Made by a program: the position numbers and the translations under genes. Source: a virus. Taken from it: DNA of 40,433 nucleotides. A model generated the notes under the pieces. The model did no database searches, had not been told where the DNA came from, and saw nothing but the letters and a program-made list of their open reading frames with translations. Positions within the stretch are counted from its first letter, which is position 1. Every line of letters begins with the position of its first letter. Shown in pieces: positions 13,152 through 40,433 of the stretch. The DNA lies in UHGV virus genome UHGV-0010553. One strand, given 5' to 3'.

Positions 13152-14684
13152 ATGAAAGCAAAGAAAAACAGTTTAGCGGACTTGACGGGTTCGGTTGAAA
13201 ATTGGGGTTTGGCGGCTAATCCGTTCTCTCCTCAAAACTCACGTCTTGATACAATGTTCATAAATACCCGATGGAGTTTGATTTCAAACTATCGCTCTAT
13301 CTTGTCGGAGGCTTATGCGGAATATGGTATTGTTCAGACTCTTGTTGACCAGCCTGTTGCTGATGCTTTTTCTACCGGTTTTAATATTATCTCTGATGAG
13401 CTTGATGATAAACAGAAACGGGTTCTTAATACGTTCATTGAAAGAAACCGAATCGTTCAAGAAATCCAAAAGGCCTGTAACTGGGCAAGATTGTTCGGGG
13501 GTGGCGGACTGGTTATTATGGTAGACCAGAATCCGTCCTCTGAATTAAACTGGAAAGAGATTGGAGAGGATTCCAAACTGGAGTTCAAAGCTGCTGATAT
13601 GTGGGAACTCTATAAAGACCAAACCAACATTTGGAATCCGTGGGAAGATGACCGTCAAGAGTTGATGTATAACTATTATGGGGTTAGATTGAATAGAACC
13701 CGTGTGTTGCCGATTTCTGGTAAAGAAGCTCCTTCGTTTATTCGTCCTCGTTTGAGAGGGTGGGGTATGTCCGAACTTGAAAGGGTTGTCCGCTCGATTA
13801 ACTCTTACTTGAAGAATCAGGACTTGATTTTTGAACTCCTTGACGAGGCAAAGATTGATGTTTACCAGATGAACGGTTTTAATACGGCTATGCTTACTCC
13901 GACCGGAACTAAGACGGCTGAGAAACGTATTCAGATGGCAAACTCTCTCAAGTCCTATCTCAATGCCTTGATTCTTGATACAAACGATAAATACGAGCAG
14001 AAACAGCTGTCGTTTAACGGTTTGAGCGAGATTTTGAACCAAATCAGACAAGGTGTCGCCGCTGATCTTAAAATGCCTATGACCAAGTTATTCGGCGTTT
14101 CTGCGGCTGGATTTAACTCTGGTGAAGACGATATTGAGAACTATAACTCAATGATTGAATCCGAAGTCAGAAGTAAAGTTAAGTTTATTGTTATTCAGGT
14201 TCTTGAGCTATGTTGCCAGAAGCTCTTTGGTTTTGTTCCCAAGGATTTGATGATTGAATTTAAATCTTTAAGGGTTCTGTCGGCTGAGCAGGAAGAAAAT
14301 ATGAAAAACAGCCAGTTTAACAGACTGATTCAGGCGTATGCCAATGGTTTAATCAGTCCTGATAAGTTTATGGTTGCCTGCAACAATCTGAATCTTCTGG
14401 GTGTTACATATACTCAAGATGATATTATGGCTGAATCTGCAACCGGAACAGACAGTATTGGGTTTGAAAAACCGGAAAAAAGGGGCTTTTTAGGTAGAAT
14501 CTTTGGGAAGAAGAACCCTGAACAAGGAAACAAACCGGAATTAGCCAGTGAAGAAGGAAAAGTTAAGGAAGTAGATGTAACTTCTAACAGGTTTACACGT
14601 GCTGACAGAGAAAAAAAACCTCTACCTGACCAAACTTATCCGTATAAAGGAAAACGCAAGACAAGATACATCGAAGCTGGTTGA
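13152..14684 (+). CDS. Portal protein
   Basis: Size (~510 aa) and position after TerL. GAGGGG RBS at the internal ATG (MKAKKNS); the ORF track's upstream extension overlaps terL. Confidence 0.7.
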   Translation: MKAKKNSLADLTGSVENWGLAANPFSPQNSRLDTMFINTRWSLISNYRSILSEAYAEYGIVQTLVDQPVADAFSTGFNIISDELDDKQKRVLNTFIERNRIVQEIQKACNWARLFGGGGLVIMVDQNPSSELNWKEIGEDSKLEFKAADMWELYKDQTNIWNPWEDDRQELMYNYYGVRLNRTRVLPISGKEAPSFIRPRLRGWGMSELERVVRSINSYLKNQDLIFELLDEAKIDVYQMNGFNTAMLTPTGTKTAEKRIQMANSLKSYLNALILDTNDKYEQKQLSFNGLSEILNQIRQGVAADLKMPMTKLFGVSAAGFNSGEDDIENYNSMIESEVRSKVKFIVIQVLELCCQKLFGFVPKDLMIEFKSLRVLSAEQEENMKNSQFNRLIQAYANGLISPDKFMVACNNLNLLGVTYTQDDIMAESATGTDSIGFEKPEKRGFLGRIFGKKNPEQGNKPELASEEGKVKEVDVTSNRFTRADREKKPLPDQTYPYKGKRKTRYIEAG

Positions 14685-24554: not shown

Positions 24555-25446
24555 GATATATCGTCTTACGGTTCAACTCCAAGACGAGCAAGGAAAAAAT
24601 ATAAATCAGGCTCTTGAGATTCAAAATCCGTTTACAGTTAAGTTTTCGGTTGATAGATCTATCTATGCCGGATTGAACTCTTTAGATATAGATATTTACA
24701 ATCTATCCCCTAAAAACAGAAACCTTTTGTTTCAAGACGTTTATGGGGATAGAGATGGTAATTATAGAAACGTTATCTTAGAGTCCGGCTACCAAGGGCA
24801 AGGAATGTCCGTTATCTTTAACGGTAACGTTTGGTCTGCTTATTCCAAGAGAAACGGTGTGGACGTTATAACGCATATTTACGCCATTGATGGGCTTTCC
24901 ACTCAATCAGGAATGATAAATACTACCTTAAAGAGCGGAACAACCGCTCAAGAGGTTATCCAAGCTGCGGCAGGGCAACTAAAAGACCTAAAAACTGGCA
25001 CAATGAATATTCCTGACCACACATTTGATCGTCCTGTTGTCCTTGCCGGAAACGCCTATAAGATATTAAAAACTTATTCTGATGATAATGTATTTGTGGA
25101 TATGAAGACAATTCATATTATGAAACCGAATGACGCTATTGAGGGGGTTATTCCTCTTATCACAGATAGTTCAGGACTTTTAGCGACTCCTGAAAGGCAG
25201 GACGCAACATTAACTATCAGAATGATATTTGAACCACGTCTTCAAATCGGGCAGCTGATTCAAGTAAAATCAGAGATTGCGCCTCAATTTGACGGTGTGT
25301 ATAAAATATATGGTATAAAACATAACGGAACAATCAGCGATGCCGTTGCGGAGAATTGCACAACAACAATTCAACTCCAAGTCGGCTCACAAGTATTCGG
25401 GAGGTTCAATGTCCTTAAAGCCGAACAGCAACAAATCTCTAAGTAA
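24538..25446 (+). CDS. Baseplate hub protein (P2 gpD / Mu gp44-like)
   Basis: N-terminal YRLTVQLQDEQGKNINQALEIQNPFTVKFSVDRSIYAGLNSLDIDIYN resembles the GPD family start (RLTV..G.DIT...L.D..G.E.D.L.I.L.N). Confidence 0.5.
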   Translation: MGKLNRIYRLTVQLQDEQGKNINQALEIQNPFTVKFSVDRSIYAGLNSLDIDIYNLSPKNRNLLFQDVYGDRDGNYRNVILESGYQGQGMSVIFNGNVWSAYSKRNGVDVITHIYAIDGLSTQSGMINTTLKSGTTAQEVIQAAAGQLKDLKTGTMNIPDHTFDRPVVLAGNAYKILKTYSDDNVFVDMKTIHIMKPNDAIEGVIPLITDSSGLLATPERQDATLTIRMIFEPRLQIGQLIQVKSEIAPQFDGVYKIYGIKHNGTISDAVAENCTTTIQLQVGSQVFGRFNVLKAEQQQISK

Positions 25447-26071
25447 CGTATTAGACGAGTCTTTTAGTGTCTTTTCTCGGTTCTTCCATTGCGTGAAAAT
25501 CGGGGAAATTCAGTCATTTGATAAACAAAATCAAACTGTTTCCGTAAAGATTCTCTATAAAGGGATTAACGATTATAATCTTCAAGAAAGAGAATTGGTC
25601 GATTTTCCAGTTTTAGAGCAAGTTCCCGTAGTCGTTTTGGGCGGTGGTGGAACTTATATCTCATACCCTATCAAAAAGGGCGATGATTGCGTTCTCTTGT
25701 TTAACGATTACGAACTAGACGGTTGGTGGTCTTCTGGTGAGGCTAGACCTTCTGAATTTCCTCGTAGACACGATTTGTCGGACGCTATCGCTATTGTCGG
25801 GCTTAATTCTCTTGTTTCCTTAATAAAAGATTATTCGGATTTTCTGAAAATTCATTATTCCGATTCGTCAAATATCACCGTTGGAAACACAATAGAAATA
25901 ACCAACCAGACAATCAATCTTAATGGCAATTCTAATGTTTCAGGAAATGAAACAGTTTCAGGAACAGTAACAGGAGAGGTTCACTCAACACACGGTGCAA
26001 GTGGTAGCTTCTCAAATGCTGCAGGACAAACACTTACCATTGTTGACGGTGTTATAACGTCTATATCATAA
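25409..26071 (+). CDS. Baseplate spike protein gpV-like (OB-fold plus C-terminal beta-helix tip)
   Basis: PVLEQVPVVVLGGGGTYISYPIKKGDDCVLLFNDYELDGWW is a gpV OB-fold signature. The C-terminus is repetitive: ITVGNTIEITNQTINLNGNSNVSGNETVSGTVTGEV. GGGAGG RBS at MSLKPN. Confidence 0.6.
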   Translation: MSLKPNSNKSLSNVLDESFSVFSRFFHCVKIGEIQSFDKQNQTVSVKILYKGINDYNLQERELVDFPVLEQVPVVVLGGGGTYISYPIKKGDDCVLLFNDYELDGWWSSGEARPSEFPRRHDLSDAIAIVGLNSLVSLIKDYSDFLKIHYSDSSNITVGNTIEITNQTINLNGNSNVSGNETVSGTVTGEVHSTHGASGSFSNAAGQTLTIVDGVITSIS

Positions 26072-26073
26072 AA

Positions 26074-26116
26074 AAAGACCGCCTCCATTCCACGACGAAT
26101 TTTAGCGGCCTTTAGT
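26074..26116 (+). terminator. Weak hairpin AAAGACCGCC...GGCGGCCTTT followed by TAGTT
   Basis: 10-bp stem with one mismatch and a long loop. Confidence 0.25.
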
Positions 26117-26177
26117 TCACCTCTCAACTACGAAAGTATTTTTAATATACAAGATTTATCCCAAAAGTCAAGAACTA

Positions 26178-26203
26178 AAAACGAACCTTTAATTTACCGA
26201 ATG
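26178..26203 (+). other. Recombination crossover site S1 (aaaacgAACCTTTAATTTACCgaatg), forward orientation
   Basis: One of six copies of the 15-bp core AACCTTTAATTT(G/A)CC. Confidence 0.6.
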
Positions 26204-26502
26204 CTTCTGGTAGGTCTGTCTTTCAATCCGCAGATAAAACACTAGGGAATGGTGGCGCAGGTGCATTGCCGAATATTACGGGTAAATTTGCGGTAGGTAA
26301 TACTCAATCACCCCCTATTGACCCCATAGGTCAAGGAGCATTCGAAGACCATGGTATATCAGGTGGGACTGTGGGGTCTGCCTTTACGCCAGCAGGTACA
26401 TATTATGACTTTGACGCCTCGCGGTCAAACAGCTTATATCGAAGTGATACTGATATAGTGATACCTGCTAGTATTTTGGTTATGTTTGCCATAAAATATT
26501 AG
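26179..26502 (+). CDS. Promoterless tail-fibre C-terminal cassette A. It begins at crossover site S1 (KRTFNLPNASGRSV...) and ends ...FDASRSNSLYRSDTDIVIPASILVMFAIKY.
   Basis: The frame opens exactly at the site (stop-K-R-T-F-N-L-P-N). The C-terminal FDASRS...V.P....AIKY motif is shared with the other cassettes. Confidence 0.6.
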   Translation, partial: KRTFNLPNASGRSVFQSADKTLGNGGAGALPNITGKFAVGNTQSPPIDPIGQGAFEDHGISGGTVGSAFTPAGTYYDFDASRSNSLYRSDTDIVIPASILVMFAIKY

Positions 26503-26807
26503 AACTTAATACAGTAAGACACCTCAATATTGTCAGGTTGAACTTTCGCGCCGTCTTGGTAAGTTGAAGATGAACGAGAGGCGTCAAAAGCATAACCAAA
26601 CAATTTTTCTGCGTTACTTCCTGTACCCGCATAATCTCTACCAGTCGCAGCATCAACATAAAAAGCTCCCGTTGCTGATCTATCGTTTGATCTTAAAGTT
26701 GTATTACCTTTAATATTCGGCAAACTCTCGCTGTTATATGTGCCTGCTGTTCCGCCTTTTAGAAATCTTCCAACAAGGTTAGGCAAATTAAAGGTTGAAT
26801 TATAAGT
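26499..26807 (-). CDS. Tail-fibre C-terminal cassette B (TFNLPNLVGRFLKGG...YCIKF), convergent with cassette A; the stops overlap
   Basis: Starts at site S2; the LPNLVGRFLKGG segment parallels LPDLRGRF at the end of a tail-collar domain. Confidence 0.6.
   Translation of the reverse strand, partial: TYNSTFNLPNLVGRFLKGGTAGTYNSESLPNIKGNTTLRSNDRSATGAFYVDAATGRDYAGTGSNAEKLFGYAFDASRSSSTYQDGAKVQPDNIEVSYCIKF
26778..26801 (-). other. Crossover site S2 (reverse orientation)
   Basis: ggcaaattaaaggtt on the plus strand at 26782-26796. Confidence 0.6.
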
Positions 26808-26868
26808 TTACTTTTCAATAAAATGGATTTAGTATTATTCTGTTAACGTTAACGAAAGGTATTTTAAT

Positions 26869-27288
26869 ATGCTTGCATATCAATATAATGAAGATTCTAA
26901 GAAGTTTACAAACGAGATTACTTGCCAGAAAGACCCGTTAGAATCTGAAATGGCAGGTAAAGACATCTGGTTACTACCTGCTAATTCCACTTGGGAAAAA
27001 CCTTTAGAGCCTAAAGAGGGCTTTGAAGTTAAGTTTTTAGAGGGCAAGTGGCAGTATGAGGCTATCCCTGAACCTGAACCCGAGCCAGAGCCCGAACCGA
27101 CTGAAAAAGAAAAGATTGAGCGTGAAATTTGGAATCTCAAGGGCGAACTTAGCTCTACAGATTATAAGGCTATCAAATACGCCGAGGGTTGGATTAGTGA
27201 AGAAGAATACGCCCCTATTAAGGCAGAACGCCAAGCCTTGAGAGATAAGATTAACGAATTGGAAGAAAAGTTAAAAACGCTTGAATAA
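26869..27288 (+). CDS. Tail-fibre-associated protein (XkdW-like, putative fibre assembly/chaperone) with an (EP)n linker
   Basis: YNEDSKKF...DIWLLPANSTWEKPLEP...EPEPEPEPEPEP...; GAAAGG RBS. Confidence 0.4.
   Translation: MLAYQYNEDSKKFTNEITCQKDPLESEMAGKDIWLLPANSTWEKPLEPKEGFEVKFLEGKWQYEAIPEPEPEPEPEPTEKEKIEREIWNLKGELSSTDYKAIKYAEGWISEEEYAPIKAERQALRDKINELEEKLKTLE
27061..27096 (+). repeat. Simple (GAACCN)n / (Glu-Pro)n repeat
   Basis: cctgaacctgaacccgagccagagcccgaaccg. Confidence 0.8.
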
Positions 27289-27888
27289 ATGAACTATGCC
27301 TATCTAAGAATTAGCACCGTTGCACAAGACGAACAGAACCAACGCCAAGGCGTTGATTTGAAGGCAAAACAGCTCAATTTACAGATAGACAAATACATAA
27401 TTGACAAGGTTTCAGGATCTACATCTCCAAAAGTCCGAAATCTCGGTAAACTAATAAAGTGGCTAAAAACCGGTGACGTTGTGATTGTTTCAGAACTATC
27501 TAGGCTTAGCCGCTCTCTTTTTGACTTGTTTAATATTTTTCAAGCTATCCTTGCTAAAGGAATAAAACTCATCACTGTTAAAGAGAACTTTGTTGTTGAC
27601 GATTCTATCCAATCCAAGGCAATGATATTTGCATTTGGGCTAAGCGCAGAGATTGAAAAGAATCTTATCCGTGAGCGGACAAAGGAAGCATTAGAAAGAA
27701 AAAAGGCTCTGGGTGTACGCCTAGGGCGCCCACAAGGGGCAAAAACAAAAATCCATAAACTAGAACGCTATAAACAAAATATCGCTCTATGGCTTAAAAA
27801 AGGCGTTTCTAGACATAAAATAGCAAAGCGGTGTAAAGTATGCGATAAAACGTTAAGACGGTATATAAAAGCAAATAACCTCGGATAA
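27289..27888 (+). CDS. Serine recombinase, DNA invertase (Gin/Hin/Cin/Min-like)
   Basis: YLRISTVAQ (catalytic Ser), ELSRLSRS, ERTKEAL, and a C-terminal HTH RHKIAKRCKVCDKTLRRYIK. 199 aa, Hin/Gin size; sits among tail-fibre cassettes. Confidence 0.8.
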   Translation: MNYAYLRISTVAQDEQNQRQGVDLKAKQLNLQIDKYIIDKVSGSTSPKVRNLGKLIKWLKTGDVVIVSELSRLSRSLFDLFNIFQAILAKGIKLITVKENFVVDDSIQSKAMIFAFGLSAEIEKNLIRERTKEALERKKALGVRLGRPQGAKTKIHKLERYKQNIALWLKKGVSRHKIAKRCKVCDKTLRRYIKANNLG

Positions 27889-27997
27889 ACATTTTTTTTG
27901 CGCATTTTAGCCCATTTAGTGCCACTTTATGAGATTTTTTCTCAAAATAAGCCCTTAAAACGTCTAATTGTGGCAGATTCGCCATAATTAAAACATT

Positions 27998-28023
27998 TTA
28001 ACGAACCTTTAATTTGCCTAATG
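27998..28023 (+). other. Crossover site S3 (forward)
   Basis: ttttaacgAACCTTTAATTTGCCtaatgg. Confidence 0.6.
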
Positions 28024-28337
28024 GCTATTGGAGACTCACCGATGAGTTAGATGCAAGCACTGCAGTTACGAAATATGTCAACAATGAAACCTTTACGGAC
28101 GATGGATGGGCGGCGATTTCGGCTAAAGGAACTGATAGAGGAACTCCCACATATACTTGGAATGGACAATCGATTACCGGCTTTGCCAACGGAGCAAGTT
28201 ATTTGCAAATCCCCAATATATTGTCATTATCGCACCAGGCTGGTGATTCTTTTGCTGTTAATGGTGATGGCTCATATAGAGGATATATTGGAATGGCTTA
28301 TAAAAACCCTCGACAACTTTATTGCATAAAGTATTAG
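28002..28337 (+). CDS. Tail-fibre C-terminal cassette E (RTFNLPNGYWRLTDELD...LYCIKY). Near-identical inverted copy of cassette G.
   Basis: The frame opens at S3. Its 107-aa sequence is identical to ORF 31959..32282 except one residue (E/K). Confidence 0.6.
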   Translation, partial: RTFNLPNGYWRLTDELDASTAVTKYVNNETFTDDGWAAISAKGTDRGTPTYTWNGQSITGFANGASYLQIPNILSLSHQAGDSFAVNGDGSYRGYIGMAYKNPRQLYCIKY

Positions 28338-29434
28338 TATTTTATCGCATACTTAATACAAGTATCTTCCTCACTGATAATTCCTGACGTTTGCGAATCC
28401 GTGCTTATGCCCCAAACTCCGGTATTCGCCACAAATAATGAGGTGTTACCTAATACTCTATTGGTTGAAAATTGAAAGTAACCCCCCATACCAGAAGTCG
28501 CATTATTGCCGGGATAGCGAGTTTCTTTGGCATTTAAAACATTTAACCCTAAGCCGTTACCATCGCCAATAACGTTTCTCGTTAAGAACTGCCTATTCGG
28601 CAAATTAAAGGTTGATTTATCGTTCCCACTGTTTCTGGTATAAGTTGCGCCTGCCGAATCTGTGAATCCGGTGTCTGTGATTGTGGCAATAGTAGCGGTT
28701 ATTGAAGCTCCATCCGAACCATAGATAGCATCTCCAACTTCTGGAGTTGCTTTGTTAATAAAATAGTCAACACCTGATGAAGTGTATGCATAGATACCAG
28801 ATGAATAGATACCGCCGATAACGGCAAACAGGGCAGAATAAGTTGTTCTTGATACAGCTGAACCATCACAAATAAGGTAGCCTGCAGGAGCGGTTGAGGT
28901 AGACCAAGCGATGATTGCTCCGGTAGGATTACCTGCGGATTGTGTGGCGTTGTAAACCGCAGCAGATGACGGGTATTTTGTAGTTGAATCAGTCAGGTCT
29001 TGCTCCATATTAGCCAAGGTCTGAAGTCCTTGTGTAGTGTTGTAAACCAAATCCCAGTTATTGGCTGTAGTCGGAGCAATACCTGCTGTTTCATCAACTT
29101 TGCATTTATAGAGAGCGTAGTCAGAATCAGTGATAACTTTAACAACTGCGCCTTTATAATAAGTAGTTCCAGAATCATACTCAGGAATACCCTCTTGCAT
29201 AAGATAGGCAATCTGGCTTGTCTGCATATATTGAAGCCCTTGAAATTCCTCAAGAGGAGGTAGCTTTTCAGAAGAAATAGTTGCTGAGTTCCAACCTGTT
29301 TTATAAGCGTCCAAGGACTGAATTTGAGCAATATCATTTGATACAGTTCCAGTTCCTGCTTGTAAAGAGCCAAACACACCGTTATTGGTTGCATTTTCAG
29401 CAAATACTTTTTGAGTTTTTCTTGCAAGTTTCAT
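28334..29434 (-). CDS. Tail fibre protein, currently assembled. It has a constant N-terminal part with a phage tail-collar domain (29434..28614) fused at site S4 to a variable C-terminal cassette (28613..28334).
   Basis: AIIAWSTSTAPAGYLICDGSAVSRTTYSALFAVIGGIY...KSTFNLPNRQFL is a tail-collar signature; the TFNLPN is encoded by crossover site S4. C-terminus is CIKYAIKY. AGGAGAG RBS. Confidence 0.75.
   Translation of the reverse strand: MKLARKTQKVFAENATNNGVFGSLQAGTGTVSNDIAQIQSLDAYKTGWNSATISSEKLPPLEEFQGLQYMQTSQIAYLMQEGIPEYDSGTTYYKGAVVKVITDSDYALYKCKVDETAGIAPTTANNWDLVYNTTQGLQTLANMEQDLTDSTTKYPSSAAVYNATQSAGNPTGAIIAWSTSTAPAGYLICDGSAVSRTTYSALFAVIGGIYSSGIYAYTSSGVDYFINKATPEVGDAIYGSDGASITATIATITDTGFTDSAGATYTRNSGNDKSTFNLPNRQFLTRNVIGDGNGLGLNVLNAKETRYPGNNATSGMGGYFQFSTNRVLGNTSLFVANTGVWGISTDSQTSGIISEEDTCIKYAIKY
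28595..28617 (-). other. Crossover site S4 (reverse). It lies inside the expressed tail-fibre gene, at the collar TFNLPN motif.
   Basis: ggcaaattaaaggtt at 28599-28613. Confidence 0.6.
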
Positions 29435-29436
29435 AG

Positions 29437-30054
29437 CTACTCTCCTATTACTTCAATAATCTTATGATAGTTTAATGTTTCTCCGACTTTTTCGGGATTA
29501 TCATACGTCCTAAATCCCGTTTTGTAAAATGCGTATTGATTGTCGTATGTAACGAACCCGAATATTGGAGAATTTTGAACAATAACGTATCTAACGCCTA
29601 CTCCCATAGGGCGAGGTAGACAATCCTTCTGAATAGCCGCTATAACTACACGAGAAGCCCCTTCAGGAATAAAAAAGGTAAGTTCCATACCACCATTGGA
29701 TTCCGCCCTCACAGTTCGCCCAAAGAAGCTATATAATGCCGTGTCAATATCATAATGCGAACAGTTACTTGTGTTGGCAATACATTTAAACTTTAACAGA
29801 GTTCTAAACTCGTCATCTGTCAGTTCGATAATCTCGCCTTTAGTTCCGATATAGTATCTGTCAGTTCCGACATATTTAGCAAGAATATCTAATTGTTTAC
29901 CGACAGCGGTTTCAAGAGAAAATCCATCCCTGACAGCAAAAATCAAATCAACCGGAAACTGACTACCAATAGCCTTTATGGTTTCTTTTGCTTTGGGTTT
30001 ATCTCTATACTGTATAATTAAGAGTTCGGATAAATATTGTGCATAATCAAACAA
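29437..30054 (-). CDS. Baseplate protein gpI-like (P2 I / XkdU-like). TTG start immediately after the J stop.
   Basis: Position between gpJ and the fibre; ~200 aa. Confidence 0.4.
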   Translation of the reverse strand: MFDYAQYLSELLIIQYRDKPKAKETIKAIGSQFPVDLIFAVRDGFSLETAVGKQLDILAKYVGTDRYYIGTKGEIIELTDDEFRTLLKFKCIANTSNCSHYDIDTALYSFFGRTVRAESNGGMELTFFIPEGASRVVIAAIQKDCLPRPMGVGVRYVIVQNSPIFGFVTYDNQYAFYKTGFRTYDNPEKVGETLNYHKIIEVIGE

Positions 30055-31251
30055 TTATACCCCCCCCTGAACAGTTATATCAACCGTGGACAGGACAAAT
30101 TTCGTTGCAATAACAGGTGAAAGATACTCAACCCAATCTGTGCCGTTACTAGAGATTAAAACATTTAGAGCTAGACCTTCTCCACCATTAGCGTCAATAG
30201 CCGCTTGAGCGGTTGCTGTAAGAGAGGCTGTATCTGCATATCCACCAATCATAAAAGAAGTGTTATCGATGATATACTGCGAGATAGCGTCTGTATCAAA
30301 AGTAATGTCTGTTTTCAAAGACTTAATTGTAAATCTCATTTGAATATTTTGAGTTGTCGGTTCGCTCCACTTAGCAATAAACTGTTGGTTTGACGGAGTT
30401 GTAATAGTATATGAAATATCGCCTTTCATATCACAACCATAAGATTTTTTAACATATAAAGCGTTTGCAATATCTTTTGACGCTCCACCCTCTACAATAA
30501 GCCAAATACAATGAGGTGGGATACCCTTTGAATCGGTAACGCTAGAGTAGTTTTCATAAAGCGCACCATCCGTAACGCCGTTTAGTTGGAGGACATAAGC
30601 TAAAAGGCCGTTAAGGTATCCCGAAGAACCGATTGAAACAGATTGTCTGCGTCTGATTTTAAGAGAGGTATCTGTTTCTTCATTCTCTCCTAAAGTCAGT
30701 TGCGCACCAGTATTTATAACCGAAACCACGCCCAAAACAATAGTAACAGGAGTTGTGATAGTTTCAGGGATAACTTCCACCCTTCCAAGCTGTTGGGCGC
30801 GGAATAAAACACTATGCGTTCCAGCTGTCAGTGTTTGAGAGTTTACGAGAATAAACTGAGTTCCTGCGTTATCTTGAATCGTGTAACCAGTAGCGTCAAC
30901 ATCGTTATAATTTGCGTCTAGTCCTTGTAAAGATACTGTTCTGTCTACTGTTATTGAAATGTCTACCGTTGTGAAAGTTCCGCCTTTACGGAATACGTTA
31001 TTGATAGCACATCTCTCGTCAAGGAGTCTTCCTGAACAGTTATCGGGGTCAAAAGAATTATATAGTTGAACCAAGAGTTCTCTAATATCCGTCTGTCCCT
31101 GAGCAAAAATATTGATAGCCTGTCCATCAGGCGAGTTCTGCTCGACAGAAATATCATCTCCATATACAGTCTTAAAAGAAGTTGTCAAATCATCGACAAG
31201 CTCTGTATTTGTTGAAACCTGTAAACCGTTTGCGCTTAATGAATCGGTCAT
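30055..31251 (-). CDS. Baseplate J-like protein (P2 gpJ / Mu gp47 family)
   Basis: 398 aa, located between the gpW-like and gpI-like genes; GAGGT RBS. Confidence 0.55.
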   Translation of the reverse strand: MTDSLSANGLQVSTNTELVDDLTTSFKTVYGDDISVEQNSPDGQAINIFAQGQTDIRELLVQLYNSFDPDNCSGRLLDERCAINNVFRKGGTFTTVDISITVDRTVSLQGLDANYNDVDATGYTIQDNAGTQFILVNSQTLTAGTHSVLFRAQQLGRVEVIPETITTPVTIVLGVVSVINTGAQLTLGENEETDTSLKIRRRQSVSIGSSGYLNGLLAYVLQLNGVTDGALYENYSSVTDSKGIPPHCIWLIVEGGASKDIANALYVKKSYGCDMKGDISYTITTPSNQQFIAKWSEPTTQNIQMRFTIKSLKTDITFDTDAISQYIIDNTSFMIGGYADTASLTATAQAAIDANGGEGLALNVLISSNGTDWVEYLSPVIATKFVLSTVDITVQGGV

Positions 31252-31589
31252 ATCTTTACCTCAATAGTTTCATTGTAAATCGTCTTTAATCTTGCTGCGC
31301 AAGTATATACTCTACCAGCCATAGAGCTTTCAAAGAACGTAAGCTCAGTAACGCCTTCTTCTGTGGATATAATTCTTTTTATGGCGGAATCTGCGTCATC
31401 TTTTGAAACCTTAGAACCTAAGATATTCTTCCAGTCAACGCCCTTTTCCATATCAAAAAAGCAATCTCTATACCACGATAGGATTTTTGTCTTAATCGAA
31501 TAAGCAATAGCTAAAGCATCTGAGGAATAATCCTGCTTACCTTTTCCGAACAACCAATCGTGATTACTATCCAAAGCTCTAAATCTCAT
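31248..31589 (-). CDS. Baseplate wedge protein gpW / gp25-like
   Basis: 113 aa, upstream of J; typical gene order W-J-I-fibre. Confidence 0.45.
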   Translation of the reverse strand: MRFRALDSNHDWLFGKGKQDYSSDALAIAYSIKTKILSWYRDCFFDMEKGVDWKNILGSKVSKDDADSAIKRIISTEEGVTELTFFESSMAGRVYTCAARLKTIYNETIEVKI

Positions 31590-31606
31590 TTAACACCTCT
31601 ACAAGC

Positions 31607-31635
31607 ATAATATAAGACTTGATTAAAAAAATCAA
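31607..31635 (-). promoter_or_regulatory. Promoter TTGATT-N17-TATTAT reading into gpW-J-I-fibre. It lies inside the putatively invertible S4-S5 segment.
   Basis: Minus strand reads TTGATTtttttaatcaagtcttaTATTAT. Confidence 0.4.
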
Positions 31636-31649
31636 ATCATATGGAATTT

Positions 31650-31675
31650 AAAACGAACCTTTAATTTGCCTAATG
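31650..31675 (+). other. Crossover site S5 (forward)
   Basis: aaaacgAACCTTTAATTTGCCtaatg. Confidence 0.6.
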
Positions 31676-31962
31676 CTTCTGGCAAATCTCTTTATCAGAA
31701 CGACACTCTAGACATAGGTCAAGGAACACTTGGCGCTGTGCCGAATATTAGAGGAAGTGTTGAAATTAATACCGGTACACATACTTTTAATGGCGCATTT
31801 TATAGCACAAATGTTTCATATAGTCGCAGTGTATCATCTTCGACCCATACTACTGACGTTGCGTTAGGATTTGACGCCTCTAAATCTTCTTCCGTTTATA
31901 CGGACGACATAACTCGCGTAATCCCTGCAGCCATTCATATTGTTTTTGCGATAAAATACTAA
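31651..31962 (+). CDS. Tail-fibre C-terminal cassette F (KRTFNLPNASGKSLYQ...FDASKSSSVYTDDITRVIPAAIHIVFAIKY), homologous to cassette A
   Basis: Frame opens at S5; shares the N-terminal LPNASG and C-terminal motifs with cassette A. Confidence 0.6.
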   Translation, partial: KRTFNLPNASGKSLYQNDTLDIGQGTLGAVPNIRGSVEINTGTHTFNGAFYSTNVSYSRSVSSSTHTTDVALGFDASKSSSVYTDDITRVIPAAIHIVFAIKY

Positions 31963-32297
31963 TACTTTATGCAATAAAGTTGTCGAGGGTTTTTATAAGC
32001 CATTCCAATATATCCTCTATATGAGCCATCACCATTAACAGCAAAAGAATCACCAGCCTGGTGCGATAATGACAATATATTGGGGATTTGCAAATAACTT
32101 GCTCCGTTGGCAAAGCCGGTAATCGATTGTCCATTCCAAGTATATGTGGGAGTTCCTCTATCAGTTCCTTTAGCCGAAATCGCCGCCCATCCATCGTCCG
32201 TAAAGGTTTCATTGTTGACATATTTCGTAACTGCAGTGCTTGCATCTAACTTATCGGTGAGTCTCCAATAGCCATTAGGCAAATTAAAGGTTCGTTT
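31959..32297 (-). CDS. Tail-fibre C-terminal cassette G (inverted near-identical copy of E)
   Basis: Protein identical to cassette E except one residue; starts at S6. Confidence 0.6.
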   Translation of the reverse strand, partial: KRTFNLPNGYWRLTDKLDASTAVTKYVNNETFTDDGWAAISAKGTDRGTPTYTWNGQSITGFANGASYLQIPNILSLSHQAGDSFAVNGDGSYRGYIGMAYKNPRQLYCIKY

Positions 32298-32298
32298 T
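32273..32298 (-). other. Crossover site S6 (reverse)
   Basis: ggcaaattaaaggttcgtttt at 32278-32298. Confidence 0.6.
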
Positions 32299-32360: not shown

Positions 32361-32579
32361 ATGAGAGTTGGTAGCCAAATATTGATTGATAGAACGACAA
32401 CGGCAAGTGCTGCTTATGTCGGTGTTTCCGCTAGTGGAACAAAAGAAGGCGATCCCAACTGGTCTATCGAAAAAATAACCTATGATGAAGATGGAAAACC
32501 TATCTCTATTCAATGGGCAGAGGGAACTGATGAAGAAGTCCTCGTTTGGGATAACCGTGTAACATACAAGTATAAATAA
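32361..32579 (+). CDS. Small hypothetical protein (72 aa)
   Basis: Strong RBS. Confidence 0.45.
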   Translation: MRVGSQILIDRTTTASAAYVGVSASGTKEGDPNWSIEKITYDEDGKPISIQWAEGTDEEVLVWDNRVTYKYK

Positions 32580-40039: not shown

Positions 40040-40433
40040 CGCAAATCTGTTTTAATATTGGTTTCCAAGTTTTCCACCATTCAACAGCTTTTTTACCATC
40101 CATTTTCTCAATTTCCGAATCTTTGAATTTGAACCAAGCTACTTTTGAATGATATTGGCAACCAATTTTTATGTGTAAGGGCGTTAAGGTTATATTATAT
40201 TTTTGATTGGCGATGTTTACTACACTGCGTTTGGTGTCGATAGCGTCGCCATAGACCTCGGCGTTGCCATAGACCTCGGCGTTGCCATAGACCTTAGCGT
40301 TGCCATAGACCTCGGCGTCGCCATAGACCTTAGCGTTGCCATAGACCTTAGCGTCGTCATAGACCCAAGCGTCGCCACAGACCTTAGCGTTGCCATAGAC
40401 CTTAGCGTCGTCATAGACCCAAGCGTCGCCACA
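40002..40433 (-). CDS. Hexapeptide-repeat protein, C-terminal part: repeats to 40245, then a ~80-aa non-repeat tail ending ...CDAQDKDLEKTNE*
   Basis: Hand translation of the repeat frame: ...VYGNAEVYGDAIDTKRSVVNIANQKYNITLTPLHIKIGCQYHSKVAWFKFKDSEIEKMDGKKAVEWWKTWKPILKQICDAQDKDLEKTNE. The ORF-track entry 40220..40432 is the wrong frame. Confidence 0.5.
   Translation of the reverse strand, partial: CGDAWVYDDAKVYGNAKVCGDAWVYDDAKVYGNAKVYGDAEVYGNAKVYGNAEVYGNAEVYGDAIDTKRSVVNIANQKYNITLTPLHIKIGCQYHSKVAWFKFKDSEIEKMDGKKAVEWWKTWKPILKQICDAQDKDLEKTNE
40245..40433. repeat. Same 18-bp tandem repeat array as at 1..234, 10.5 units
   Basis: Direct reading. Confidence 0.9.

Follow-up and report, generated by a model that had tools for sequence, protein, structure and literature searches.

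How is a phage genome to be read in which one short sequence recurs six times, in alternating orientation, in and around its tail-fibre gene? The question is raised by virus genome UHGV-0010553 (40,433 nucleotides; "the window" hereafter means this whole stretch as analysed), a myovirus-type genome of about 40 kb with sheath, tube, baseplate and terminase genes and a GC content of about 39%. Judging from sequence comparison, we consider it highly probable that the recurring element marks the crossover sites of a programmed multiple-inversion tail-fibre system, which would swap the distal half of a collar-type receptor-binding domain. Related sequences are designated below by L and P numbers.

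Six sites share one core and one reading frame

The 15-bp core AACCTTTAATTTRCC is present in exactly six copies in the window, a number that does not rise when up to two mismatches are allowed. A first-pass annotation, made from the letters of the sequence, had listed three forward and three reverse copies, and we recovered each of them where it had been placed, with orientations that alternate along the locus. In dinucleotide-preserving shuffles, the mean number of copies was 0.34 and the maximum 2. The sites are as follows.

26184..26198, plus strand: site S1 (AACCTTTAATTTACC); upstream side the non-coding flank U1, downstream side cassette A
26782..26796, minus strand: site S2; upstream flank U2, on the side of the chaperone gene
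28004..28018, plus strand: site S3; its flank U3 lies downstream of the invertase gene
28599..28613, minus strand: site S4, the sole site with a coding upstream side
31656..31670, plus strand: site S5; flank U5 corresponds to the sequence before baseplate gene W
32278..32292, minus strand: site S6; its flank U6 resembles U1 (..AGAACTAAAAACG)

All six sites are read in one common frame, A ACC TTT AAT TTR CCN AAT, encoding T-F-N-L-P-N, and downstream of each there are 92-110 open codons before a stop. Upstream, an in-frame TAA lies 2, 4, 1, 10 and 2 codons from S1, S2, S3, S5 and S6, respectively, and none of these five intervals holds an ATG, GTG or TTG. S4 is the sole site at which the frame continues upstream, into a 366-aa fibre; the frame check bears out the earlier description of start-less frames that open at the sites and of a single site joined to coding sequence. 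The open reading frame (ORF) lister had begun cassettes at an in-site TTG (MPN...), as if they were independent genes. We rejected that reading because this TTG is the site's Leu codon, S1 has TTA in its place, relatives have CTG, GTG or ATT, and the frames are closed just upstream. The fibre itself comprises the following.

28334..29434, minus strand: 366-aa tail fibre (Pfam Collar, 4.3e-14)
28613..29434, minus strand: constant N-terminal part of the fibre, 274 aa, which includes the first half of the collar domain

The constant part matches many PHROG tail-fibre families, and the Collar domain (PF07484) scores above its gathering cutoff (52.6 bits against 24). Profile positions 1-40 of 57 correspond to residues 172-211, the remainder lying at and past the TFNLP site, and the core overlies the TFNLP codons of this domain.

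When the sites of any one genome of the family are compared, nearly all agree at core positions 1-10, the exception being one L093 site with a change at position 10; variation is found at positions 11 and 13. Together with an A-rich, AAAACG-like stretch that adjoins the core in the window's four non-coding U flanks, this invariance argues for constraint at the level of DNA and not of protein alone, and would place the crossover within core positions 1-10. The 20-nt U2 flank is also present in L100 and L115. A dyad scan of 36 family sites found weak symmetry only, around core positions 3-4, which does not allow the crossover dinucleotide to be fixed. When IMG/VR was scanned for the exact site, 84 stretches were returned, mostly with single matches, about half of them without a long upstream frame and with an invertase nearby in only 1 of 80; the 18-mer by itself is therefore not diagnostic of a switch.

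Five distinct tips in six cassettes

The open frames at the sites form three convergent pairs of tip cassettes, S1 A> <B S2 (26184-26796), S3 C> <D S4 (28004-28613) and S5 E> <C' S6 (31656-32292), and within each pair the two stop codons overlap (TTAG/CTAA).

26185..26502, plus strand: cassette A, silent tip, 105 aa, TFNLPN to ...FAIKY, with FDASRS
26499..26795, minus strand: cassette B, silent tip, 98 aa, with FDASRS, ending CIKF
28005..28337, plus strand: cassette C, silent tip, 110 aa, ending CIKY; duplicate of C'
28334..28612, minus strand: cassette D, the tip now fused to the constant part, 92 aa
31657..31962, plus strand: cassette E, silent tip, 101 aa, with FDASKS, ending AIKY
31959..32291, minus strand: cassette C', silent tip, 110 aa, one residue different from C
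28000..28349, no strand assigned: left arm of a 350-nt inverted repeat (S3 plus cassette C), with its right arm at 31947-32296

Six alternative tips had been proposed for this locus. There are indeed six cassettes, of which five are distinct, those of S3 and S6 being the same tip twice: C and C' form the 350-nt inverted repeat, whose arms differ by one mismatch at 28044 (E/K). The C-terminal motif that the cassettes were said to share likewise needs narrowing, in that the IK(Y/F) terminus is found in all six, whereas FDAS(R/K)S is limited to A, B and E and occurs neither in C/C' nor in D. Each of the five silent cassettes keeps an open frame of 98-110 codons and a conserved C-terminus. Cassette A is 30-37% identical to the expressed tips of relatives, cassette B is 53.5% identical to the tip expressed in L100, and D-type ends (..SG(I/M)I..IKY) are expressed also in relatives P0126 and P0130.

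Some smaller features of the cassettes may be recorded here. Tip D ends ...CIKYAIKY, a doubling of the C-terminal motif (28334-28360). Its final 21 nt are also those with which cassette E ends, a hint that the ends of D and E were once exchanged. The base that separates C from C' at 28044 (G/A, E/K) is an A in the invertase-adjoining copy of L001 (position 10756), a contig from another sample; this would fit an S3xS6 exchange, gene conversion or a plain single-nucleotide polymorphism. Within cassette B, the stretch ACCTTTAATATTC (26704-26723) is the antisense of LPNIKG codons and has the opposite polarity to S2. It matches 13 of the 15 bases of the L118/L119 site core AACCTTTAATATTCC and pairs with the LPNITG codons of cassette A (26266-26285) as a 20-nt inverted repeat, and it could be a secondary crossover or a homologous-exchange point.

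An Mpi-like serine recombinase and a single putative chaperone

Two genes make up the module between S2 and S3.

27289..27888, plus strand: small serine recombinase (predicted DNA invertase), Mpi-like, 199 aa
26869..27288, plus strand: putative tail-fibre assembly chaperone, 139 aa, in single copy outside the cassettes

The recombinase had been described as Gin/Hin-like. Its serine class stands, with a Pfam Resolvase match of 6.6e-31 over residues 3-143 and an HTH_23 match at 159-195 that falls below its cutoff. The likeness to Gin and Hin does not: its best NCBIfam match is the Mpi family NF009949, aligned over the full length with 204.2 bits (1.8e-60), under the cutoff of 272, and no Din-type model was among its NCBIfam matches. 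It also matches phrog_125, DNA invertase. Catalytic Ser9 and Arg7 align with gamma-delta resolvase (YLRISTVAQ versus YARVSTSQQ), and E values were 9e-10 to 3e-9 against Gin structures and 1.7e-11 against gamma-delta resolvase, which puts the protein no nearer to Gin than to this resolvase. The ORF is of full length and the catalytic residues are kept. The nearest phage match is the invertase of Bacteroides phage B124-14 (42.6%), and a single-protein search of species-representative bacterial genomes returned no relatives of the invertase. In the window, S3 lies 115 nt past the invertase stop; in L090 (10583), L093 (10582) and L119 (12382), one crossover site overlaps the final codons of the invertase.

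For the 139-aa protein, the match to phrog_105 (tail fiber assembly) is weak; the homologues that relatives encode match PF16778 (Phage_tail_APC). Its position as a single gene outside the cassettes, together with the IK(Y/F) end that these have in common, suggests that one shared chaperone serves all tips, perhaps by way of this C-terminus.

A proposed route to tip switching

What an exchange between these sites would move depends on the genes that they enclose. The module between S4 and S5 consists of the fibre constant part and baseplate genes I, J and W (29437..31589), on the minus strand. Structural genes ahead of it, as far as a spike-like gene at 25340-26071, are on the plus strand. Sigma-70-like hexamers are located just inside each module.

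29437-30054, minus strand: baseplate gene I (DUF2612/wedge)
30055-31251, minus strand: baseplate gene J
31248-31589, minus strand: baseplate gene W (sheath-initiator/gp25-like)
31607..31635, minus strand: promoter-like TTGATT-17-TATTAT, then AGAGGTG and ATG, between S5 and W (consensus match only)
26795-26824: sigma-70-like hexamers before the 139-aa gene (consensus match only)
Before the gene at 32361: sigma-70-like TTGACA-17-TATTTT (consensus match only)

In the mechanism that we propose, the 199-aa serine recombinase would pair two oppositely oriented sites among the six, cut and exchange within the invariant core positions 1-10 (AACCTTTAAT), and invert the DNA between them, re-pairing upstream (U) and cassette (K) sides, all in one frame. 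Whichever cassette is brought next to the fibre constant part (U4) would be the tip expressed. Pairing of S4 with S3 would yield tip C through inversion of 0.6 kb; pairing with S1 would yield tip A and flip the chaperone-invertase module too; and pairing with S5 would yield tip E, in which case the 3-kb module of W, J, I and the fibre constant part would flip with its own promoter-like element. Tips B and C' would each take two inversion steps. A simple model of this kind predicts 384 reachable arrangements, 64 for each cassette. The first-pass annotation had not gone so far as to note that S4xS5 would invert W, J and I along with the constant part, nor that invertase and chaperone together make up a module which could be inverted in its turn.

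We infer that this recombinase acts on these sites and that inversion still occurs in this phage. The position of the tips directly after the collar TF(N)LP motif, and the use of such tips as expressed ends in relatives, likewise lead us to expect that they differ in receptor specificity. A further reading seems plausible, if short of probable, namely that the locus brings about isomerisation of the genome: W, J, I and the constant part on the one hand, and chaperone and invertase on the other, would be invertible units with promoters of their own, tip choice would be coupled to gene order and possibly to expression of the invertase or baseplate genes, half a collar domain would be swapped at its most conserved motif with one chaperone for all tips, and this architecture would be common to a clade including L093 and L118-L121.

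Breakpoints at the sites in relatives

The proposal of a multi-site serine-invertase tip switch is supported by the polar in-frame sites, the convergent cassette pairs with their overlapping stops and the intact recombinase described above, and also by breakpoints in related genomes. L090 and L091, from two metagenomes, are 99.8% identical over the 1.8 kb rightwards of a site, a stretch that holds a cassette pair, chaperone and invertase, and are unrelated to the left of it. On that side, L090 has the fibre constant part (...GGGGACGGAAACAC, continued across the joint by GACCTTTAATCTGCC), and L091 has a non-coding flank like U1 and U6 of the window (GCAGAACGACAAACC, joined to GACC...). Between L118 and L119, whose flanks are 98-99% identical, the chaperone-invertase module is inverted, and the inverted stretch in L119 (11275-12400) is bounded exactly by sites d and e. 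At the protein level, P0127-P0130 have constant parts that are 98-100% identical up to TFN(L/I)P and then continue into four different tips, which are only 36-60% identical to one another or to the silent cassettes of L118 and L119; P0127 and P0129 diverge only past a common LPNITG stretch within the cassette. Further, L093 and L095 carry the baseplate-fibre block in opposite orientations relative to the chaperone-invertase genes. The site breakpoints in relatives can be read as natural isomers and, as such, support recombination at the sites.

In L095, the invertase is truncated to residues 3-114 and joined to the baseplate block. The joint between invertase and W-upstream flank (L095 10323-10345; compare L093 10336 and 14051-14063) falls at a weakly site-like AACATTTTCGACTGC, and may be an illegitimate recombination that locked the system.

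The same core is present in relatives at two sites (L095, L099, L100 and L114), four sites (L093) or five sites (L118 and L119). L118 has the gene order of the window (pair, W J I H, pair, <invertase <chaperone, site, <V), with 83% identity in J, 80% in I, 63% in V and 66% in the invertase, and has no long repeat; the layout is also that of L093, with its four sites. At least five copies of the core are found in a 202-kb contig (L025/L039/L075; IMGVR_UViG_3300045988_181983, 202,747 nt). Four of its cores are at one mismatch or fewer, its cassette starts are duplicated and its invertase is 57% identical to that of the window, so that the pair of site and recombinase is found in very different genomes. 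Invertase variants P0121, P0122 and P0124 belong to other phage backbones and are not isomers of the window phage.

Evidence to the contrary and rival explanations

Several observations tell against an active programmed switch. Dyad symmetry of the site is weak, with about 5 of 10 pairs matching, which is unusual for a site bound by a serine-invertase dimer. The two-site relatives L099 and L100 are without an invertase in the DNA fetched. Matches from the promoter-like and terminator scans were not enriched over shuffled sequence, and the promoter-like elements are reported on account of their position alone. For the phage of the window itself, a comparison that rests on a handful of assembled contigs found no alternative junction, the same U-K pairs being carried by L001, L003, L004 and L005, and a collection of 5.8 billion proteins holds only the D isoform of this constant part. 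Finally, which way round the 3.6-kb block lies between its flanking repeat arms depends on one assembly.

A frozen relic would be a once-active shufflon whose arrangement is now fixed and whose tip D is always made. Three observations favour it: junctions are identical in all contigs of this phage from other assemblies, the protein collection offers no further isoform of the constant part, and L095 with its truncated invertase looks like a locked derivative. In such a relic, however, the unused parts should have decayed, yet the invertase is full-length with its catalytic residues, the six cores are intact, and the five silent cassettes are open with conserved C-termini. We regard a relic as unlikely, though it is the alternative to be taken most seriously.

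General homologous recombination between the paralogous cassettes, by host RecA or a phage ERF-type annealing protein, is a good deal less likely as the explanation of the locus. The 350-nt inverted repeat with its one mismatch would be a suitable substrate, the same genome has an ERF-family gene (in the gene list of L002), the C' base in the invertase-adjoining C copy of L001 fits gene conversion or exchange, and P0127 and P0129 part within the cassette rather than at its edge. Breakpoints in the relatives nevertheless fall at the 15-bp core and not within long homology, most site pairs share only 15-25 bp, which is too short for efficient exchange, and a dedicated invertase is conserved beside the cassettes across the family. 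Homologous recombination may well act in addition to the site-specific process, as exchange between the arms of the 350-nt repeat could also flip the block and would leave the tip unchanged.

An assembly artefact, in which the duplicated C and the inverted baseplate block would be a chimera of population variants with fewer true sites, is scarcely credible: MEGAHIT and SPAdes contigs from other samples do end at the C repeat and the sole full-length scaffold, L002, is the window sequence, but the C-D and E-C' joints are present in independent contigs, and L118, L119 and L121, assembled without the long repeat, have the same architecture, as does L093.

How far the assemblies carry the programmed-inversion reading can be stated more closely. 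L002, a scaffold of 40.6 kb, is the window sequence (100% over 19 kb) and is not independent of it. In other samples the MEGAHIT and SPAdes assemblies break at the 350-nt repeat, with L001 ending inside C and L003-L005 consisting of the 3.6-kb block alone, which these assemblies leave unplaced. The orientation of this block is corroborated by the gene order of L118. Two copies of C do exist, as independent contigs contain each of the 3'-3' cassette joints (C-D and E-C'), which inversion at the sites is unable to produce.

Relation to known switching systems

The Min system of p15B, reportedly described by Sandmeier, Iida and Arber in 1990-92, was to our knowledge long almost alone among multi-site fibre systems with a serine invertase. 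Its sites all cluster downstream of the constant part, in one region of about 3.5 kb. The locus in the window is like it in having six sites inside a tail-fibre gene, a serine recombinase, a constant N-terminus with alternative C-termini, and overlapping invertible segments that would give rise to many isomers; more than two polar in-frame sites, one constant part and several C-terminal cassettes that lack promoter and start codon are what characterise a multiple-inversion (Min-like) system, and all are found here. It differs in that its cassette pairs flank the baseplate-fibre block and the invertase-chaperone pair, so that modules invert, and in that its cassettes are short (92-110 aa) and without chaperone genes of their own, in contrast to p15B Min. 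The recombinase, too, lies outside the Din group (Hin/Gin/Cin/Pin/Min), Mpi being its best match. Six mix sites of p15B are listed in Table 3 of PMC3241671, which gives the Din consensus as a dyad-symmetric 26-bp sequence, TTC---AAACC NN GGTTT---GAA (PMC3241671). Sites of the window agree only with the ..AACC of the left half and have no GGTTT right half, and hence do not form the dix palindrome.

Mu Gin/G and P1 Cin/C likewise have convergent alternative fibre ends that start at the sites, with an adjoining serine invertase, and this is the layout of our two-site relatives L095, L099, L100 and L114. Both systems differ in having two sites, two states and an assembly gene for each variable part (U/U'), and their recombinase subfamily and site are not those of the window. 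Inversion by Gin and Cin depends on a Fis enhancer.

Mpi of Bacteroides fragilis (NF009949) is the closest curated recombinase family, and its one enzyme acts on many sites, as the recombinase of the window would; it flips promoters of surface-polysaccharide loci, whereas the system in the window would flip coding segments. With 204.2 bits against an equivalog cutoff of 272, our recombinase falls short of Mpi proper.

Two further systems come from phages of gut bacteria. In Bifidobacterium prophages, the Rin shufflon relies on a tyrosine recombinase that acts at 11-bp sites (PMC6109161); in BV01-like Phocaeicola phages, a shufflon of the tail fibre comprises three cassettes within 1.7 kb (PMC13596623). 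As in these, several cassettes would switch the C-terminus of a receptor-binding protein, each preceded by a short asymmetric repeat. In Rin and BV01, unlike here, the cassettes stand in one cluster by the constant part and no block of structural genes is inverted. A shufflon in the strict sense (R64 Rci type; Rin) is driven by a tyrosine recombinase, and the only recombinase of our region is of serine type. A genome-wide survey found DUF2612, Mpi-family invertase and tail-fibre-assembly genes to be enriched near predicted programmed inversions (PMC9881135), and the general association of these genes was therefore already known. Our literature search found no description of a multi-site layout with baseplate genes and invertase between the sites.

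The system is not categorically new. It is real and has precedent; what is unusual is the module-flipping layout, the swap of half a domain, and its apparent breadth across a clade. With a multi-site fibre switch, one phage genome hedges among several types of host surface. The logic of Min recurs here in an uncultured phage clade, built from other parts: an Mpi-like recombinase, a non-palindromic TFNLP site, half-domain cassettes and one shared chaperone. The layout puts essential baseplate genes and the recombinase gene itself inside invertible DNA. If the recombinase is active, its parts are compact and portable ones for switchable receptor-binding proteins. There is also a consequence for viromes. 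Homologues of the invertase number 2,548 at E <= 1e-20, many of them on contigs just 1-5 kb long, and in several related viral contigs the sequence breaks off at the invertase; because such loci break short-read assemblies, host-range diversity in gut viromes is probably under-counted.

Genome context and minor observations

An AlphaFold2 model of the 366-aa fibre was unusable (mean predicted local distance difference test score, pLDDT, 35), and a construct of constant part plus cassette B gave no significant match in a sequence search of the PDB. No near-identical DNA or close relative was found among catalogued phages, and an alignment search with the fibre constant part returned only distant matches in metagenome-assembled genomes of many phyla. 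Despite the Mpi-like recombinase, the presence of Shine-Dalgarno-like sequences and of -35/-10-like elements points away from a Bacteroidota host. Elements similar to the promoter-like sequence before W lie before W in L118 and L119 as well. Just past the spike-like gene, at 26072-26130, a GC-rich inverted repeat is followed by a run of seven T (minus strand), which looks like a terminator directed towards the cassettes.

At either end of the window is an array of an 18-nt tandem repeat (GACCTTAGCGTTGCCATA), with 13 copies at 1-236 and 10.6 copies at 40241-40431; the genome is probably circular or permuted and was cut within one such array. A similar 18-nt periodic array is found in L119 (5254-5516), and L118 starts in one (1-55).

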